Below, one piece after another: positions 3 through 55,255 of a stretch of DNA of 64,000 bases; within the stretch, counting starts at the first letter, position 1, and each line of letters starts with the position of its first letter. This DNA comes from a virus. A program made the translations under genes and the position numbers. The stretch spans positions 96,001-160,000 of IMG/VR virus record IMGVR_UViG_3300035670_013228. The stretch is one strand, 5' to 3'. The notes beneath the pieces are model-generated. The model saw nothing but the letters and a program-made list of their open reading frames with translations. It searched no databases and was not told the origin of the DNA.

Positions 3-3000
3 AAAAATTTTTCTTCTACAGGTTATGTTTATAACACAGAAACAGAATGCGATACTGCTGTAGAGTTATATAGAGTATCATCTTTATCTGGTCCGTTTTT
101 AATGCCAACCGACGATAATGGTAATAGACTGCTCAGAGTTGTAGGTTCTAATGTTATAGTCGGTAAAAAAATTGTTGTACAAATCACCAACAAAGAAGGA
201 CAACCAATTTTAGGAGGATCAGGATCAGAAGATAATACATATATTAAAATTTATACAGAATTTAGATTTAGAGACAAGATATTAGATACTGATTTTGATT
301 TGGTGTGGCCAACCGAACCGAATAGATCATCCGTAGTAGTTTACGACGGTAGAATGATATCAACAGATAAAGATATTTTATTGTCTAATAAAAAATATAT
401 GACAAAATGGGGAGATTTAATAAAATATGATAATGAGCTATTTAATAATCCTCATTTGTTTTCTTACGCACAAATACCTACGAGCATATATAATAATCTA
501 TTTTTAAAACAAATTGTTAATGATAATTTATCTAGTGGTATTTTTAAATTAGATATTAATAGAGACAACACTAATGAATTAGATAGAATAGAGTGTTTAG
601 GAAACATATCTTTACCGTTAGACTTACGATATTATACATCAGAAAACAAACCATACTATTGTATATATCAAAAATATGATTTGGATCATACCAAACCATG
701 GAATATAGGACTAGACCAGTATCAAAATTATATTCCTATGATGGAAGTTAATTTTTCAGAAAAAATACCCGATGCTATGATTAGCGGTACGATACTATCT
801 TCTGCGTTATATAGAAAAAACACAGTATTAGATTTTGCACCATTTTATCATATACCAGCTTTGGGCACAGAAGATGATTTTCTATTTAATGCTATTAATA
901 ATGAAGAAGAAAGATTAAGAAGATCAAAAAGAATAAGTGAAATAGAAAAAATTAAAAGAGAACAAATATCTGATAATGCATATAGTCTTCGTAATGATTA
1001 TCGCCCCCCACAACATAATGTTTTTTTTATTAAGATACCGAATATTTTTAAAAGTACTATTGGTTTTTCTAATCCCAGAGGAGATTGGATAGAAACTTTG
1101 AAAGTTCAAACGCCAAGATATGTTTTAGCCAAAACTATATTAGAAGATAATCAAGTATCGCGAGATGATGTTAGACAAATATTTAGACCTATTAATCTTA
1201 ATATTATAGATAATCAAGCATTAATTAATAATAGCATGAATACTGATGCTTTTATTTTCGGTTCGGTAGAACGAGACACTCCTTTTATTTCTAGAACGAT
1301 ATATGCCGATATAGACAAACCAATGGATAATACTGTTGGCTGTGGATCAGAAAAATGCGAAATAACAACTGCTGGCGATATTAATTTAAGAGCTAACTAT
1401 ACTACATTTTTAAGTAGATATGCTACATATGAACAGTTACTACGCGGTACAAATTTTGAGCTCACATATGATGCTGGAACAGTTAATCTTGTTGGTTTGC
1501 GTCGTAATATGTCTAAAAAAATAGTTAGAACAATGTTGGATCCAGATAATCCTATTTTTTATGATAATACTTGTTTAACTACTACTCCAAAACCTAAAAT
1601 GCCATTTTATAGATTGCTTAATGATATAGACGCACAAGACTATTTGAATAACCAATATGCAGATAATGGAAATAGTATATCTCCAGAATTAGACATTTTA
1701 GATGATAATGCTAATGAAATGCTTTTTAGATTACTAAATGGTGAAAATCAAAAAATCAACAGAAAACAATTATTTAAGAAAAATTATATACTAACACAAA
1801 ATGAATTAATAAATTTTGTAGAACCAGAAATTACAGCTAAAGAAATTTATAATCAAATTTTATATAACTATGATAGTAGAATTAATCCAGGAGCTAATAT
1901 TAGTGGTTCATTAAATATTAATGGTACAAAAAATATTGGTGATTTTATTAGTATAGATATTTATAATGTAAATATACAGCTAAGTATTGTACAAGTTGAC
2001 GGAAACAATGTTGTATTAGTGGGTAATATTGGTAATAATAATGTTAATGAGCTTTTATATAGAAGAACAGAAACGCAAAATAGTTTGATAGTGGTTGAAT
2101 ATTCAACTTCGACATCTTCTGCGGCAGCAGCGGCGATATCGGCGGGATATCGTCCGGGAACAGGATCTGACGGAATTTTGGTACCACCCGACACAGAACC
2201 AAATATTATTCCTGCTGATCCGGAACCAACCGACGATAGCGAAAGTATAACACTAATAGCTACTCGTACTACTACTGATACTAGTATTGGTGTTTACGTT
2301 GATATAAGCATAAAAGAGGGATCTTGTGATCCGTGGAGAGAACCATTCGTAAGACCACCAGATTGTCCGGAACAAGGGGGATCCGAGATTGATCCAGTCA
2401 CTAATCTTCCTATTGGTGGACCCGTAGAAGAACCACCAGGATGTAAAGATCCTTGTCCATATGCTGGTGGAGCCGGGCTCGTAGATGGTCCAACAATGAT
2501 GACAGATATCCGAAGATGGAGAGGTTCAATAGAGTATGCTCCAACAACATGTGGGAAATCTAATTGGTACGATCCTTTTAAATATGGTTATTGTAGACAC
2601 ATAGATACTGAGGCTATTAAAAATAATCCAGAATTTAAACCAAAATGTGCAAATTGTAATTCATATTTTACTAATTATATTGATAATTACGATGGAATAG
2701 AAGGAGGTCCAGAATTTGATTATGAATTTCAAAAATGTTCTACCACATTTAGACTCAAAGGACACTTGTATAGACTTAAATTCACACCACAAAATGAAAG
2801 ACCATCATTTAGATGTAATCCGGAACTTTATAGTCCTTTCCTCCCAGCAAAAAATAATGCATGTACTGCAATTTTAGGAAATGTAGTAGGATGTTGGGCG
2901 GGTTGTACTCCTGGGCCAAAAAGTCCGAACTTTTGGCATCTGTCTAGAGTAGCAGATTGCTACAGCGATCCTTATGCACCATATTTTCTTTGTATTCCAA

Positions 3001-4244
3001 CTTTCGGAGATCCTTATCAATGTACTAAAGTATCAACAAGTAGCACAACCACAACAACTAGAAAAGTTTTCAAAAAAACCAAACAGATTGATTATGGTCC
3101 ATATACTCCACCAAGCTGTGCCGTTCCTTTTGTAAATATCTCATATACCAAAAATAAAGTAACTGTAAGCATACCATCTATCGGCAAAACTTACTGTTTA
3201 GCGATTAATTCTAATAGTAATTGTCCAATTATTAATATTGATATGCCCAAAAAATATACTGTAACAGAAAATATTACTAGTGAGTGTGTGAGCAATTGTG
3301 GAGATCCTGTTTCTATAGAAATTCAAGAAGAAAATAACGATTTTGATTTTGCTTATCAGGATTATACTGTGGTATGCGAACTAGGTCGTATATCTTATGG
3401 CGATTTACAGGGAGATGCTGTTGTAACAAATGGTTACAGGTGGCCCGATGGTTCATCAAGCGTACCACCGGGCGAATTTCCTCCGTGCGGAGATAGGGCC
3501 GGATGGATAATCTCGCTGTGCGGAGGAGGGCCGTTATGGTATAATTGTGGACCATTCTCCGAAAGAAATCTAACTTATGGAGGATGGACAGCTAGCGATA
3601 TGGCTGCTGGATGGAGACAAAAAATGGAAAATATATATAATAATGCTCAATTACCATGCAAGGTTAGTCCCGCAATACCAACAGAAGATATAATAGAAGG
3701 CATTATTCCTGGTTCATGCTCTTTAAATTTTCAAGATATTAGTCTTGAACAACCAAAATATAAAGATGTTAGTTATGATGAATTTGCTTCATCTTCATGG
3801 ACTGTAACTACATCTATTGCCTATATTACATATACCTATAGAAAAGCTAAAACTATACAAGATCATTTAATATCTGGAACTAATAATGGAAATATTAATA
3901 ATAGTATTGTAATAGAATATGAGAAAAATTCTTATATACCTTACGTGAGAACAGTAAACGGTATTGGCTCTTGTAAAGAGTTAGGTTTCCCACCGAGATT
4001 TCTAGCAGACACAGATTCGATTACAGGCGCATTATATAATACCTTTAAATTAACTTCACCGATTTATAGAAGAACATCTTGCGATACTGCTCCTACTTGT
4101 TATTATGATACTAAACTAGACGATAAACAAAGTCCTTGCAATTATGGAGATTGGATATGTTGGTCAACCGTCGGTTCTGCTAATAGAGCCTCGTTTTTAA
4201 ATAGAATATTCAAAGATCCTACAGGAAATAATAGGTGGGTATAA
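3..4244 (+). CDS. Large hypothetical protein, Cys-rich C-terminal half, 5'-partial (possibly virion-associated)
   Basis: ORF track gives 102..4244, but the same frame has no stop from position 3 to 102 (KNFSSTGY...GPFLM), so the gene runs off the window. No recognisable family. Confidence 0.8.
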   Translation, partial: KNFSSTGYVYNTETECDTAVELYRVSSLSGPFLMPTDDNGNRLLRVVGSNVIVGKKIVVQITNKEGQPILGGSGSEDNTYIKIYTEFRFRDKILDTDFDLVWPTEPNRSSVVVYDGRMISTDKDILLSNKKYMTKWGDLIKYDNELFNNPHLFSYAQIPTSIYNNLFLKQIVNDNLSSGIFKLDINRDNTNELDRIECLGNISLPLDLRYYTSENKPYYCIYQKYDLDHTKPWNIGLDQYQNYIPMMEVNFSEKIPDAMISGTILSSALYRKNTVLDFAPFYHIPALGTEDDFLFNAINNEEERLRRSKRISEIEKIKREQISDNAYSLRNDYRPPQHNVFFIKIPNIFKSTIGFSNPRGDWIETLKVQTPRYVLAKTILEDNQVSRDDVRQIFRPINLNIIDNQALINNSMNTDAFIFGSVERDTPFISRTIYADIDKPMDNTVGCGSEKCEITTAGDINLRANYTTFLSRYATYEQLLRGTNFELTYDAGTVNLVGLRRNMSKKIVRTMLDPDNPIFYDNTCLTTTPKPKMPFYRLLNDIDAQDYLNNQYADNGNSISPELDILDDNANEMLFRLLNGENQKINRKQLFKKNYILTQNELINFVEPEITAKEIYNQILYNYDSRINPGANISGSLNINGTKNIGDFISIDIYNVNIQLSIVQVDGNNVVLVGNIGNNNVNELLYRRTETQNSLIVVEYSTSTSSAAAAAISAGYRPGTGSDGILVPPDTEPNIIPADPEPTDDSESITLIATRTTTDTSIGVYVDISIKEGSCDPWREPFVRPPDCPEQGGSEIDPVTNLPIGGPVEEPPGCKDPCPYAGGAGLVDGPTMMTDIRRWRGSIEYAPTTCGKSNWYDPFKYGYCRHIDTEAIKNNPEFKPKCANCNSYFTNYIDNYDGIEGGPEFDYEFQKCSTTFRLKGHLYRLKFTPQNERPSFRCNPELYSPFLPAKNNACTAILGNVVGCWAGCTPGPKSPNFWHLSRVADCYSDPYAPYFLCIPTFGDPYQCTKVSTSSTTTTTRKVFKKTKQIDYGPYTPPSCAVPFVNISYTKNKVTVSIPSIGKTYCLAINSNSNCPIINIDMPKKYTVTENITSECVSNCGDPVSIEIQEENNDFDFAYQDYTVVCELGRISYGDLQGDAVVTNGYRWPDGSSSVPPGEFPPCGDRAGWIISLCGGGPLWYNCGPFSERNLTYGGWTASDMAAGWRQKMENIYNNAQLPCKVSPAIPTEDIIEGIIPGSCSLNFQDISLEQPKYKDVSYDEFASSSWTVTTSIAYITYTYRKAKTIQDHLISGTNNGNINNSIVIEYEKNSYIPYVRTVNGIGSCKELGFPPRFLADTDSITGALYNTFKLTSPIYRRTSCDTAPTCYYDTKLDDKQSPCNYGDWICWSTVGSANRASFLNRIFKDPTGNNRWV

Positions 4245-5992: not shown

Positions 5993-6709
5993 TCACTTCC
6001 ATTCTGTTTCGTAGCCTTTAATGTTTTCTGAAATCGAAGCAGCATTCTGTTGTAGACTATTCAGATTTTGTATTATAGAAACCGCCTCGTGGTGTTTTAT
6101 ATTATATACAGAATCGCAGGATATGTCAAGATGCTTCAATAGTTTTACGACATTAACGTTTAGTCTTTGTGCTAGTACATCTATAAAATTGATTTGATTA
6201 ACGCTAATTTTAGACACACTATCTCCATTCGGATCATCTTCGATATTTGATGATATTTCTTCTGCCGCTACTACTTTGCGTAATTTTAATGCTCTTCTTA
6301 AGGCTCTTCCTTCTGCTCTTGTTTCGGCCACGGCCACGGGATGATTACGATATACTTTGTCGCAATTGCCCCAATAAACGTCCGCAGAGCCATCCACAGT
6401 CTGAATATTAATTCCGTCTGGGTCTGGAGTACCCGGATTTAAACGATACGTCAACGAATGAATAACCGTTGCTCTTTTTTCATTGTCCGGGCTGGGAGAC
6501 TGAGCCACAGACGATGTTGACGACATTAATCTACAATTTAGAGCAATCTCAAAAATACGACGCAATCCATCTGTAGTGGGATTACCTGAAATTTTTTCGT
6601 CATCAGATAACAATCCTAATACATAATCTGTCCATCCCAAATCTGTTGGTTTTAGTGTGATTTCTTTACTATCTTTCGTGTCTTTAGTTTCTTTGGTTTC
6701 CTTTACCAT
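5993..6709 (-). CDS. Single-strand annealing protein (Rad52/Sak/ERF-like)
   Basis: Motif PVAVAETRAEGRALRRAL resembles phage annealing proteins; lies in the replication block. Confidence 0.55.
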   Translation of the reverse strand: MVKETKETKDTKDSKEITLKPTDLGWTDYVLGLLSDDEKISGNPTTDGLRRIFEIALNCRLMSSTSSVAQSPSPDNEKRATVIHSLTYRLNPGTPDPDGINIQTVDGSADVYWGNCDKVYRNHPVAVAETRAEGRALRRALKLRKVVAAEEISSNIEDDPNGDSVSKISVNQINFIDVLAQRLNVNVVKLLKHLDISCDSVYNIKHHEAVSIIQNLNSLQQNAASISENIKGYETEWK

Positions 6710-9837: not shown

Positions 9838-10742
9838 AATATGAAAGCCTTTCTTTTTGAATCGTGTTCTATTATATCGGATAATTTAATCTTGAACAGA
9901 TCGAAATTATGGAAACGTGTGAGGTATTCTACGACAGATTGCTTTACGGGGGGATTTTTAAGATCGCTATTGATATTTCTAGCTATATTATCTATTGATG
10001 ATCTATATATCAGTGATGGTATAGATGTGGTGTCCGATGATGGTACGATAGATAAGCACCCGCAAGCTATAGAAATTAACGAGAGTAATTTATCTGATTG
10101 TAAATTAATTATGCTCTTAAACCCATTTAGATACTCACACAGTTCCGACAATGACATAGATGGTATCTGATCTATAATATCACACTTAATATGTTCGTTT
10201 TCGAGATGGTGTTTTAATTGATGTCCAACCATGTTATTGGGTATATTTAGTATTAGTATATCTTTTTCTCTTTTGTCGTACTCTATAGTAGTATTAAAAA
10301 TTTCCAACGGAATTCCGTAATTTAGTATAATACTATTATGCTGATTCCAGCTTAATGCATAGTTCTCGTCAAAAAAGATTTTTTTGGTATATTTTAATTT
10401 TTGATTGATAATAGACAGATCTTCTTTTTTGATTTGATTTTGTTTAGGACCATGTTCAAAAACAAGAGAATTTAGATGTAACTGTTTTGGTAAAACATCT
10501 TGAGCCGATTGTAACAGAGAGTTGCAAATAAATAGATCATACGAATATAGATCAATATGAGATTCTGGCAAACCCAATGCATTTTCTGAGTTCGATATAT
10601 AGTTATTATCGAAAATGTAAAAGTTATAACCTACATAAAATAGAATTTTATCAAATACAGTATTCGCTGGTCTATATATAATATTTCTTTCGGATTCTAT
10701 AATTTGATGTATAATATTACTATTAATAATATTTAGTCGCAT
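9834..10742 (-). CDS. GT-B glycosyltransferase-like protein
   Basis: YGIPLEIF, ELCEYLNGFKSII, SLISIACGCLSI: degenerate GT-B motifs. Confidence 0.5.
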   Translation of the reverse strand: MRLNIINSNIIHQIIESERNIIYRPANTVFDKILFYVGYNFYIFDNNYISNSENALGLPESHIDLYSYDLFICNSLLQSAQDVLPKQLHLNSLVFEHGPKQNQIKKEDLSIINQKLKYTKKIFFDENYALSWNQHNSIILNYGIPLEIFNTTIEYDKREKDILILNIPNNMVGHQLKHHLENEHIKCDIIDQIPSMSLSELCEYLNGFKSIINLQSDKLLSLISIACGCLSIVPSSDTTSIPSLIYRSSIDNIARNINSDLKNPPVKQSVVEYLTRFHNFDLFKIKLSDIIEHDSKRKAFIL

Positions 10743-11854
10743 ATTTTTTTACCTATTGTTTCATAACTAAATTGATTTATAGAAGAAATACCTATCTCTC
10801 TTTTTGCTTCATATGCTTTTCTATCGTTTTTGTACATAGTATAAATTTTTTGCATATTTTCTATTAGACTATAAACATTTGGCTTATACCAATATTCATA
10901 AGCATTATAAATATCAAAATCATTAGAAAGAGTTCTTTGCTTTAGCATAACTGGTTGTTTATGACTATTAATTAGAAATCCATTATTATTATCTATAAAA
11001 TCAGCCATACCTGTGTGATCGGTTACTATAGGGGTTTTGCCGAGAATTAAACCTTCTGCTGCTGGACGACAAAATGCTTCTCCGTATGAAGGCATTACTA
11101 GACAATCGCAAGTATTATGTAGACCTATTATATCTATATCGGAGAGTCTATCAGAGATTATAAACTCTTTTTTGTAATACTGTTTAATATTCATTTTCTT
11201 TTTGATCTCTGCTATGTCATCTTTGATAATAGACACAGATTGAGACTGAGAAGCTCCAGGTACGCTAGACTTAATTACTAGTACCACATTGTCTGTATCT
11301 TTAAAAGCTAGATGAAAAGCTATAATCAAATCTGCAAAATTTTTTCTCTCCACATACTCACCTATACAATAAAACTTAAAAGCTTTTTCTGGTAATCCTG
11401 AAATAGACAATTTATAGTTTGCATTATTTTTATACATGTCAATATCTATAGGTTCTGATACGACTTTGATTTTTGTTTTTACTCCAGACTTTTTTAAACA
11501 TAGTTCTTCTTGTTTGGAGGGTACGCAGATTTCGTCTATATTATTAAGATTGTGAATACAAATAGATTTGGATATATTATTAGTTTCTAATACAAACAAT
11601 CCTACATTTTTTGGTCCATTTTTGATAGGAGCTATGCAATGCGGAAGAGTTTTCTGAAAAATAATATCGTATGACGAATATATAGAGTTTTCATACTGTA
11701 TAATTTGTTGATCCGGTTCAGAAGAATTATTGATAAAGAATATCGGTCTGGCGGTTATATTGGGTATCTTGGTGGCTATGGCTTTAATATAGTCTTTGGA
11801 CGCCATACCCCACCCATCTGTTTGCCTATACGGACCTATAAATAAAGCATTCAT
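10733..11854 (-). CDS. Glycosyltransferase family 4
   Basis: ERKNF...CDCLVMPSYGEAFCRPAAEGLILGKTPIVT: GT4 signature. Confidence 0.85.
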   Translation of the reverse strand: MNALFIGPYRQTDGWGMASKDYIKAIATKIPNITARPIFFINNSSEPDQQIIQYENSIYSSYDIIFQKTLPHCIAPIKNGPKNVGLFVLETNNISKSICIHNLNNIDEICVPSKQEELCLKKSGVKTKIKVVSEPIDIDMYKNNANYKLSISGLPEKAFKFYCIGEYVERKNFADLIIAFHLAFKDTDNVVLVIKSSVPGASQSQSVSIIKDDIAEIKKKMNIKQYYKKEFIISDRLSDIDIIGLHNTCDCLVMPSYGEAFCRPAAEGLILGKTPIVTDHTGMADFIDNNNGFLINSHKQPVMLKQRTLSNDFDIYNAYEYWYKPNVYSLIENMQKIYTMYKNDRKAYEAKREIGISSINQFSYETIGKKICD

Positions 11855-52785: not shown

Positions 52786-53880
52786 TTATAATAGATCGTA
52801 TTCTAAATCGTATATGTCATTATTAATACTATCAATGTAGGTCAAATCTAAAATTTTGTAAACATAACTAAATGTTGCTGGCGGTAATGTTGTTGTTGTT
52901 GTTGTTGTTGGTTCTGGAGTTGTGGTGGTAGTTGTTGGCGCTGGCGTGGTTGTGGTCGAAACTACCGTTGCTGATTCTTGAGCTATTTGATTTGCTATAT
53001 TAGATATTGTTGTGGTTTTGTTTTCTGTTACACTTCCAATATTTTCTAATATTTTTTTTGTAAAAACTATAGAAGAAAATGTATTACCTTTTGAGAATTC
53101 TTCTATATCTTTATTTATTATTGACGTTGTATTATTAGAAATAATATCAATTTCATTTGTTTGTTCTTGTGTTAATTGTTGATTGTTATTTAAGTTAAGA
53201 ACTTGTTTTTTAGACTCAACTAAGATAGTATTAGTTTTTTGATTAAAAAATTCTGTTGGATTTAATCTTATAGTATTATCTTCTATAATTGTTTTAGCAA
53301 TTGATGAAAAAACATTACTTTCGGTAGTTTCTAATGCTGTTTTTGCAATCAAAACAACAGAAGATAATTTTCTATTTGTTTCGTATGCATTATTTATTGT
53401 ATTAGAAAACGTAAATTCATCGTTTCCATTTGGATTAATATAATTTGTTAGATCAAATCCAAAAAGATTTTGAATACGATTAATAGGATTATTTTCTCCA
53501 AGTCTAACAATTTCATTATAAATAGTAGAAATAGCAGAAAATATAATTCTATTATTAATTTTGTTTGAATTATAAAGATATGTATATCTAAACTCTATGG
53601 GTTGATTTGTTTCTGTGTCTATTGATAAATTATTGCTATTAACTACAAAATAATCAGGACTTAATTGTATAATTTGATTAATTTCATTTTGTGATAAAAT
53701 CAAATTACTTCCACTAACGGTTTTACTAAATCCTATTGAATTATTATTTTTTACCATTCCAAATGTAAAATTAGAAATCGTGGATCCTTCAATCAAAATA
53801 GATGGAGTACTAGTCCTTCTAACTTTAGCAACTCCGTTTACCATTAATAATTTATTAGTATTAATTTTAAATGATGTCAT
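52786..53880 (-). CDS. Hypothetical protein with shared N-terminal tag and Thr/Pro-rich linker
   Basis: [19 protein letters not shown] N-terminus; [27 protein letters not shown] near the C-terminus. Confidence 0.75.
   Translation of the reverse strand: [364 protein letters not shown]
52888..52908. repeat. (TGT)7 trinucleotide tract encoding poly-Thr
   Basis: Read directly from the sequence. Confidence 0.9.
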
Positions 53881-53881
53881 A

Positions 53882-54080
53882 ATTTAAATCTTAGAGAGTT
53901 ACTCAACCTGTTATGCTGTATTATACACTACTACATTTGTATATTTTTTTAATTTTCATTGTACCGTTATTATTGAATATTTTATTAACTTTGACCTTAA
54001 ACTTTGCTAATATTTCTGATATAGTTGTAAACCATCAGTTACAATACAATTATGTGACATGATTTAAATCTTAGAGAGTT
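53882..54080. repeat. 19-nt exact direct repeat ATTTAAATCTTAGAGAGTT at 53882-53900 and 54062-54080
   Basis: Each copy lies just upstream of a minus-strand ATG (53880 and 54060). Confidence 0.9.
53921..54060 (-). pseudogene. Frameshifted small gene carrying the FKxxxNK...NG.xK.RK tag
   Basis: The ATG frame reads MSHNCIVTDGLQLYQKY*; the -1 frame reads ...LAKFKVKVNKIFNNNGTMKIKKIYKCSSV*. One extra base between about 54008 and 54034 would join them. Confidence 0.6.
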
Positions 54081-54274
54081 CCTGAGCCTATTGTATAGTA
54101 TGTTATATCATCAAATCGTTCATCATATTTATTTTCAATATCAGCAATAACTGGTTTATTATAAACGTTAGAATTTTGATATTGAAAACTATTTGTAAAA
54201 GGAGACGGGGCCACTACAAGAGTGCCATGTTTGATAGATGTGCCGCTTTTTGCTAAAGTTATATCGTTTGCCAT
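54071..54274 (-). CDS. Small hypothetical protein
   Basis: 67-aa ORF with AAAGGG RBS. Confidence 0.7.
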   Translation of the reverse strand: MANDITLAKSGTSIKHGTLVVAPSPFTNSFQYQNSNVYNKPVIADIENKYDERFDDITYYTIGSGTL

Positions 54275-54286
54275 ATTATACCCTTT

Positions 54287-55255
54287 CTAACAAGAATAAT
54301 TTGAAGCTACTGGACCGTTACCATTAGAATCTGCTGCTACACAAGTTGGATCTGTATCGCTTTGAGTAGCATAAACCCAGTATCCAGCATTAGTTCCGCC
54401 GCCTTTGTAATATGCCGCCTTGTGCCATTCATTTTCGGTGGGTAAATGATATTTAGCATCATTATTACTGGGTACAGCATTTCCAGTAGTTCTTCCGTCT
54501 GGAATAGTGTATGCTCCACTTTCGGTACTGCCATTGCCTTTTCCGTTATGTAGCCAGTTGCAATATCGGGCACAGTCAAACCAACTTACATAAGTTACTG
54601 GCTTGTTTCCCATGTTATTTTTAACACTATAAGTGTAACTACCACTAGAGCCGCTTCTAGTTATTCCGCCCCTAGCATGGATATTCATATCGGTATTGTA
54701 TAAATTGTAAGTGTCTATTGCTGCTACAGCATTTAAAAATTCAACATATTCACAGTTGGTAACAAGATATTGAGCTATAACATACTCATAATTCACACCG
54801 CCATACCCAGTGCTGTGATTAGAGTTGTTAATATCATTAACAAGGGCAAAGTGTGGTAGATTTAAAGGATTAAGGGTAACAAAACGACTTGATAGACGAA
54901 AACCGAGGCTGTCGTACTCGGCCGACGGGGCGAACGTGCTCCTGCTGGAGGACGACAAGTAGTACGCGATGTTGATCCAGGAGCCGCCCCGAAGCCCACG
55001 AGATGAACCTGTTGTATTATTTAAATCATTCCACTCATAAACTTGTCCACTTTGATCATATGTTCCATAAGCAGATGGTCCTCCATTAGAGCCAACCGTG
55101 GTAACATTACCGTCTTGGCCGTCCCAATCAGCACAAGAGTTAAAATTAGCACTATTAGGACCAGCACTAAAAGGCCCGGTAACATATGCTTGTTTTCTAA
55201 CTTTAGCTACTCCATTTTGATATTTTAATTTGTTAGTATTAATTTTGAATAACAT
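54287..55255 (-). CDS. Circularly permuted FGE/SUMF1 (C-type lectin fold) protein; candidate DGR target
   Basis: [17 protein letters not shown] block comes before [34 protein letters not shown]. Confidence 0.9.
   Translation of the reverse strand: [322 protein letters not shown]
54896..55000 (-). other. Candidate DGR variable region
   Basis: 67 of 105 nt are G/C and only 14 are A. Twenty-nine consecutive codons end in G or C. Covers RGLRGGSW...LGFR. Confidence 0.7.

Follow-up and report, generated by a model that had tools for sequence, protein, structure and literature searches.

A GC-rich variable region inside a permuted phage lectin gene, a possible trans target of a planctomycete diversity-generating retroelement

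The window analysed here is a stretch of 64,000 nucleotides comprising bases 96001-160000 of a 177,880-bp virus record (IMG/VR record IMGVR_UViG_3300035670_013228; 32.7% GC), and it encodes a lectin-fold protein whose gene contains, well inside its reading frame, a short GC-rich patch resembling the variable region (VR) of a diversity-generating retroelement (DGR) (Table 1). Read on the coding strand, the patch extends over 105 nt from cgt ggg ctt cgg to ggt ttt cgt and is made up of 35 C, 32 G, 24 T and 14 A (63.8% GC). Specifically, the third base is G or C in 30 of the 35 codons, 29 of which are consecutive, from cgg through ctc, and the fraction of codons with G or C at the third position (GC3) is 0.79 over the 38 codons of the phage VR span and 0.25 in the lectin gene outside the patch. 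At this background, 29 such codons in a row have a probability of roughly 0.25^29. No frame of the record holds a longer run, the runner-up counting 13 codons, and 14 adenines or fewer are found in only 0.17% of the 105-nt segments on the same strand. The original prediction, made from the letters alone, had described a GC-rich, adenine-poor patch of this length with 29 G/C-ending codons and had listed its codons; base and codon counts reproduce the description, and the list is correct. The patch is real and not a composition effect, as chance and amino-acid composition are excluded as sources of its GC content by the GC3 run together with synonymous-site tests. Other GC islands of the record, namely a collagen-like Gly-Pro repeat, a Gly/Pro/Cys-rich segment and a DUF1501 gene, have no GC3 run. 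The collagen-like Gly-X-Y repeat lies outside the window (G000:C1:45832-45973) and is the most GC-rich 105-nt segment of the genome (65%). Within the window, the gene of a 1,380-aa Cys-rich protein (102-4244, plus strand) holds a GC island (3429-3541, local 60% GC) that encodes a Gly/Pro/Cys/Trp-rich stretch, has no NNC pattern (N, any base) and looks like an amino-acid composition effect.

The 322-aa product matches the FGE-sulfatase family of Pfam (PF03781; FGE, formylglycine-generating enzyme) in two stretches (E 7.9e-21, 75.3 bits against a curated cut-off of 23.3), and in a profile search of the genome the profile positions 156-253 are encoded ahead of positions 36-134. BLASTP against canonical bacterial homologues returns two swapped segments, phage residues 139-318 corresponding to bacterial residues 32-211 (60% identity) and phage residues 13-123 to bacterial residues 191-303 (56% identity). 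An AlphaFold2 (AF2) model built from 52 homologues (predicted local distance difference test score, pLDDT, 86.5; predicted template-modelling score, pTM, 0.88) supersedes a poor one from 16 sequences (pLDDT 49), and all 15 structural matches that VIA-align reports for it are FGE-fold proteins. The matches include CarF (5aoh; Z 6.2, root-mean-square deviation, rmsd, 3.7, 150 residues aligned), the DGR variable protein TvpA (2y3c; Z 5.6, rmsd 3.5, 139 aligned), which fits the second half of the model (residues 127-309), and Mtd of BPP-1 (1yu0; Z 2.1, rmsd 3.0, 81 aligned), which fits the patch-bearing part (residues 36-127); at the sequence level, residues 27-118 match TvpA residues 185-292. The Z values are modest because a sequential aligner fits a single piece of a permuted fold, and the argument for this modelled fold is its consistency across the family and not the VIA score. 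A Foldseek search of the PDB gave no match at E <=0.001, as expected of a permuted fold, and returned partial FGE-family matches only. Judged by these alignments, the lectin domain of the C-type lectin (CLec) fold is circularly permuted, and this is why the VR is internal in the gene; the original prediction had proposed just such an origin for the internal position, which the BLASTP segment swap, the order of the Pfam profile and the VIA matches bear out.

Table 1. Features of the lectin locus, in window coordinates
Feature	Position	Strand	Basis
Gene (969-nt open reading frame, ORF, 322 aa) of a circularly permuted FGE-sulfatase/CLec-fold protein	54287..55255	-	ORF, Pfam, BLASTP, AF2, VIA
GC-rich VR patch (aa 86-120, RGLRGGSW...GFR), adenine-free scaffold codons with NNC codons between	54896..55000	-	
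124-nt span equivalent to a template repeat (TR)	54888..55011	-	Gap-free against the TR of locus L090 (12658-12781)
C-terminal third of the canonical FGE/CLec domain (aa 36-125), first in the permuted order	54881..55150	-	BLASTP, profile order, TvpA match, VIA
N-terminal two-thirds of the canonical FGE/CLec domain (aa 139-318), second in the permuted order	54302..54841	-	Pfam, BLASTP, profile order, VIA
N-terminal module (aa 2-20), putative virion-docking adaptor	55195..55250	-	Repeat D3 with 53817-53872; similar N-terminal peptides
Neighbour gene (364 aa) with the same N-terminal module (first ~20 residues), without FGE domain	52786..53880	-	Pfam, repeats D3/D4

The patch bears the signature of a DGR target, that is, variable sites in the form of NNC codons on an invariant scaffold poor in adenine. 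Comparison with 22 related loci from IMG/VR places it in a family: in the closer relatives, phages of 32-40% GC, the equivalent segment has 50-66% GC and a GC3 of 0.55-0.87, and the nucleotide scaffold is held in common, with landmarks that include cgg ggc ggc, TTGTCGTCCTCC, ccg tcg and ggt ttt cgt, while the interspersed NNC codons vary phage by phage; in the distant relatives, the segment consists of ordinary AT-rich codons (GC3 0.16-0.26). NNC codons cannot encode Lys, Glu, Gln, Met or Trp, and in 17 permuted, phage-type homologues whose VR has the standard length these residues account for 2 of the 272 at the variable columns; in 51 canonical bacterial homologues they account for 6 of the 714 at the identical columns. 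Moreover, the third-position identity at identical residues between the phage and its phage relatives is 0.50-0.66 in the flanks and 0.82-1.00 in the scaffolds of fresh VRs. The residue test, the scaffold shared with the relatives and the adenine-free scaffold codons support the DGR-type VR that had been predicted, and, as far as its letters can tell, the patch is a genuine one. A search of IMG/VR with the scaffold pattern recovered three known relatives and two chance matches, and blastn of the lectin gene against the phages collection gave no match.

The machinery that would write such a region was searched for throughout the record. The reverse transcriptase (RT) family RVT_1 (PF00078) has no match in the 177,880 bp, and a hidden Markov model representing seven DGR RTs, applied with filters off to the full set of ORFs of at least 50 aa, reaches a best E of 3.9. 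For Avd, neither PF22296 nor the Avd protein of a planctomycete cassette (L090, described below) finds a match in the record, although small four-helix proteins can escape such searches. The short-word blastn across the whole phage record that the original prediction had recommended as a check for a template (word size 7) finds no TR, the best non-self match of an adenine-tolerant TR scan of the record has 23 non-adenine mismatches, where a control on the reversed genome gave 22, and a repeat search of the window finds no second copy of the patch. Because RT, TR and Avd were all looked for in the record and none was encountered, the phage is not a self-contained DGR, and the earlier observation that the window lacks all three extends to the whole 178-kb record. 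In the relatives, no RT was found in five records (three of them rated complete, 152-230 kb) or in about 40 AT-rich phage-type metagenome loci, and a scaffold 12-mer has a single occurrence in each of two complete relatives searched. A distant phage DGR, one of the two writers originally suggested, finds no support in a record without RT and TR and in five relatives' records without RT. AAC-rich segments in the AT-rich phage loci were considered as TRs and ruled out, as they are Thr/Pro linker repeats.

The canonical homologues retrieved by a scan of species-representative genomes come almost all from freshwater Planctomycetota metagenome-assembled genomes (MAGs) of 60-70% GC, often several per genome. 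They bear a signal peptide and a PEP-CTERM anchor, and apart from a hypervariable VR that directly precedes the anchor they are 70-80% identical to one another. Three loci from such MAGs (L036, L067 and L090) hold a full cassette consisting of the target, Avd, RT and an AAC-rich TR directly after the RT; at L090, the parts are identified by Pfam as bAvd (PF22296, E 1e-20), RVT_1 (PF00078, E 1e-20) and an FGE-sulfatase target. In three planctomycete genomes, the VR 3' end is present in 5-9 dispersed copies on different contigs (controls, 0), and on this distribution the planctomycete DGR family natively serves dispersed targets in trans. Further observations concern the state of these and related loci. 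At L090, the assembled VR beside its own Avd-RT-TR (10797-10917) has an in-frame TAG where the TR has TCG, which is either a dead variant or the consensus of a mixed population. RT-like fragments of at most 45 aa, 52-85% identical to the L090 RT, adjoin VR/TR 3'-end motifs in planctomycete MAGs (G008:C3:92380-92514, G008:C89:13827-13904 and G009:C194:6033-6170; L193, L194 and L192) and look like decayed DGR cassettes. At L144, the TR position directly after an intact DGR RT (6150-6276) has a TR-type 3' end with VR-like, non-AAC codons, possibly a TR/VR misassembly. Lastly, phage-type lectin homologues occur on GC-rich contigs, with the VR pattern and the permuted order seen at L112 (62% GC) and L184 (64% GC), and also on L116, L117, L128 and L140 (52-59% GC).

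The TR that best matches the phage VR is that of L090, from which the phage differs at 16 of 30 TR adenines and at 11 of 94 other bases (Fisher p = 8e-6). Five of the 11 non-adenine differences stand at the two edges and are read as changes towards A or T, and of the six in the interior, most agree with the common planctomycete VR scaffold. The consensus of the fresh phage VRs is the consensus of 64 bacterial VRs at every strongly conserved base, including the idiosyncratic GnC and aTC codons that are the counterparts of GAC and ATC in the TRs. The limits of the patch are the limits of the TR in several phage lineages, and at the VR 3' end and the first bases beyond it the phage copies match the bacterial targets and not the TRs. 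The flanks of phage and planctomycete genes have a nucleotide identity of about 0.60 and, at identical residues, a third-position identity of about 0.3, whereas in the VR scaffold the nucleotide identity is 0.88-0.96, and the synonymous identity 0.8-0.9, at most loci compared. With flanks so diverged and a scaffold nearly identical, the patch represents planctomycete DNA-level information inside a gene long recoded to phage composition, and is, on this comparison of sequences, younger than the rest of the gene. A GC-rich host DGR, which the original prediction had offered as the second possible writer, is strongly supported by the presence of AAC-rich TRs, RT and Avd in Planctomycetota of 60-70% GC, with a matching scaffold and both ends in agreement.

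The phage relatives also bear on how the VR changes over time. One phage contig (L110, the same contig as L006) carries two permuted lectin paralogues, with VRs that start at 10169 and 11655, one of them fresh (GC3 0.86) and the other decayed (GC3 0.37). Together with the series of VR GC3 values that descends from 0.87 to 0.55 in the relatives, these paralogues indicate that GC-richness is not inherent in the coding segment. Fresh but different VRs are found on an identical scaffold in lineages that are 20-35% apart in flank protein sequence. Moreover, two phage-type proteins that are 93% identical, a pair that includes P0038 and was compared at the protein level only, differ at 11 residues within 19 aa in the 3' part of the VR and by 12 substitutions in the other 372 aa; such a partial replacement anchored at the 3' side is the expectation for retrohoming. 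Among the clusters of proteins with at least 90% identity, four of six have no difference at all inside the VR, and therefore rewriting, if it occurs, is episodic.

The hosts of these phages are probably freshwater Planctomycetota. The phage carries outside the window a full-length DUF1501 gene (E 9e-111; G000:C1:165514-166818, corresponding to L195:2015-3319, minus strand), whose product shares 63% identity with a protein from a Pirellulales MAG carrying nine VR ends, and in one sequencing run GC-rich homologous contigs are present, a weak hint of co-occurrence. As side observations, the Pirellulales MAG contains 31 matches to the phage DUF1501 protein, and the neighbours of the DUF1501 gene are a Volactin-type actin homologue and a RuvB-like ATPase.

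The explanation somewhat favoured here is that the phage VR is rewritten in trans by a multi-target DGR of a bacterium, probably of the host, both the donor and the retrohoming route being presumptive. One DGR of the Planctomycetota would diversify several dispersed PEP-CTERM-anchored FGE-lectin surface proteins, and the phage keeps in its structural cluster a permuted homologue of that lectin with the same VR scaffold and 3' junction. During infection, adenine-mutagenised complementary DNA (cDNA) of the bacterial TR would home into the phage copy as it does into the remote targets of the cell, rewriting the binding loop and resetting the patch to GC-rich codons, and lineages no longer rewritten would drift back towards AT-rich codons. 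The chances appear evenly balanced for the broader proposition that large AT-rich phages of freshwater Planctomycetota, having no generator of their own, keep a permuted host-lectin copy whose VR is a valid substrate of the host DGR, that each infection can rewrite the receptor-binding loop by cross-replicon mutagenic retrohoming, that tropism switching is thereby outsourced, and that the GC-rich patch records the host.

A number of observations weigh against rewriting by a bacterial DGR and are gathered here and in the next paragraph. A phage of 32.7% GC on a host of 60-70% GC is unusual; phiKZ on Pseudomonas presents a similar phage-host GC gap. The TRs nearest to the phage VR include no cognate with zero non-adenine mismatches, the best having the 11 described above, and an internal change from TTC to TAC is not derivable by adenine mutagenesis of any TR seen. 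A TR-type 18-mer retrieved nothing from IMG/VR, and a guessed cognate TR 30-mer, with up to three mismatches allowed, was not found in those searched of 401 sampled Planctomycetota genomes. At the 3' side, target recognition in DGRs involves an end of the IMH (initiation of mutagenic homing) type and a hairpin or cruciform located downstream (Guo et al. 2011, PMC3240598). In this phage, two substitutions fall within the final 8 nt of the TR-equivalent span, and a hairpin search downstream of the phage VRs found no conserved or consistent structure. In addition, most of the same facts are explained by patch gene conversion, a possible but rather unlikely course of events in which the VR would be replaced by homologous recombination with the diversified VR copies of the host (or with TR DNA), with crossovers in the scaffold ends and no reverse transcription on phage DNA. 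The 5-9 VR-bearing paralogues per planctomycete genome would be possible donors for it; however, with a nucleotide identity of only about 60% in the flanks, the patch itself would be the only homology available, and of the 64 sampled bacterial VRs, a sparse sampling, none matches the variable codons of the phage, the best having 16 non-adenine mismatches over 127 nt. Scaffold ends that are identical in phage and bacterial copies could support short-patch exchange; the coincidence of patch and TR limits in several lineages counts against it. The 3'-side partial replacement in the 93%-identical pair fits internal crossovers equally well, and L013 and L006 carry a few bacterial-type codons just upstream of the VR.

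The remaining points of this kind concern present variation and the completeness of the record. Logan contigs at depths of 70 and 314 have zero differences across the VR, with the limit that contigs drop rare variants, the identical protein is found on at least four contigs, and the same VR recurs in independent assemblies; thus, there is no sign of present hypervariability, and a single haplotype dominates the sampled population. A 21-kb stretch of another assembly has three base differences, none of which alters the lectin protein, and a run with a smaller share of words has a contig gap over 54968-55045 (depth ~9). One haplotype at high depth and one protein in independent assemblies would suit a frozen relic, that is, a VR written earlier, by a DGR once present in the phage lineage or during an old transfer, and now inert; the decaying VRs of several relatives (GC3 0.55-0.77), the four of six clusters without VR difference and the two substitutions at the 3' end of the VR of this phage are on the same side. 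Such a relic is nevertheless improbable: G or C is still the last base of every codon in the 29-codon run, within a gene of GC3 0.25 and a genome of 32.7% GC, so that the patch appears far younger than the amelioration of its flanks, the lineages 20-35% apart each hold a fresh and different VR on the identical scaffold, one close pair shows a replacement specific to the VR, and no relative with a cassette of its own was found in the five records and about 40 metagenome loci. The identical protein is also encoded on a 189,401-bp contig, about 11.5 kb of which falls outside the 177,880-bp record, and the record is labelled a provirus; both bring up the very improbable case of a phage lineage that owns a DGR elsewhere, in these 11.5 kb or on a satellite or co-infecting element, for which remote targets 20-80 kb from the RT are a precedent in phages (PMC5758913). 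Against it, the record is 100% complete by CheckV estimate, three complete relatives (152-230 kb) have no RT, and two hold one scaffold copy; moreover, a TR residing in an AT-rich genome should drift to T-ending codons, and the 29-codon run contains no such codon, which argues for a template kept in a GC-rich genome. As for the label itself, no tyrosine integrase was found in the record, and the assignment as a provirus is therefore unsupported and doubtful. For the diversification in trans that the original prediction had put forward, templates of the same family have been found in Planctomycetota, the probable hosts, whereas retrohoming and patch recombination are not separated, an exact cognate TR was not found and the contigs present one haplotype.

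Rewriting by a host DGR would act on a protein that, from its gene context, is likely a virion adhesin or receptor-binding protein. The lectin gene belongs to a structural cluster, where it adjoins a head maturation protease and a LamG protein matching baseplate and virion structural PHROGs, and DGR-type CLec proteins are binders, not enzymes. The start of the lectin gene and that of the 364-aa neighbour, a protein with no Pfam or PHROG match, are related by a direct repeat (D3, 56 nt, 80% identity, 55195-55250 against 53817-53872), and a 47-nt element upstream of the lectin gene is repeated at the next gene (D4, region of 53817-53921 and 54055-54101). A repeated N-terminus and upstream region is typical of interchangeable virion-docked binders, and the two genes look like two binder cassettes sharing one docking module. 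Elsewhere, a tRNA search of the window found none. At the start of the record, outside the window (G000:C1:1-1233; L030), the first ~1.1 kb have 50-56% GC and no convincing ORF, the stretches 71-361 and 961-1233 give similar translated peptides, so that the element looks repeated, and Rfam has no match in the GC-rich first 1.5 kb.

The prevailing view is that DGRs diversify targets within the genome that carries them. If the reading favoured here is true, the writing of a phage gene by a bacterial DGR would open a new cross-replicon route of accelerated evolution and give phages a new way to switch receptor specificity without the cost of the machinery, and the patch would offer a sequence-only host marker for uncultured phages of Planctomycetota, where few phage-host links exist. 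Roux et al. note that remote targets could not be detected by their RT-anchored mining (PMC8144416), and surveys of this kind would miss a class of targets. No case in which a bacterial DGR writes into a phage gene is described in the literature searched, although such work may still exist; a survey argues that remote targets are not expected to associate or travel with phages, and avd-TR-brt is able to act in trans from a plasmid (both PMC5758913).

Among the known systems, the DGR of BPP-1 (mtd VR, avd, TR, brt) is alike in that its VR lies in a phage virion receptor-binding protein of the C-type-lectin fold, a virion role that is predicted for the lectin described here, and in its adenine-to-N signature, with AAC-to-NNC codons on an adenine-free scaffold. 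It differs in having its own avd-TR-brt beside the target and a C-terminal VR, whereas here RT, Avd and TR are all absent from the record, the VR is internal and the templates are found in bacteria. The cellular multi-target DGRs, such as that of Treponema denticola TvpA (2y3c; PMC5758913), share the FGE-type CLec target and the service of several distant VRs in trans by one RT-TR; all of their known remote targets share a genome with the RT, whereas here a phage carries the target and a bacterium the RT-TR. A further system is that of the PEP-CTERM cassettes of Planctomycetota (L036, L067 and L090), which agree with the phage gene in the nucleotides of the VR scaffold, its 5' and 3' limits and its variable columns and are 56-64% identical to it in protein sequence elsewhere in the domain. 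Their proteins have the canonical domain order, a signal peptide, a PEP-CTERM anchor, 60-70% GC throughout and an adjacent Avd-RT-TR, whereas the phage lectin is permuted, begins with a phage N-terminal module and, except for the patch, has an AT-rich gene.

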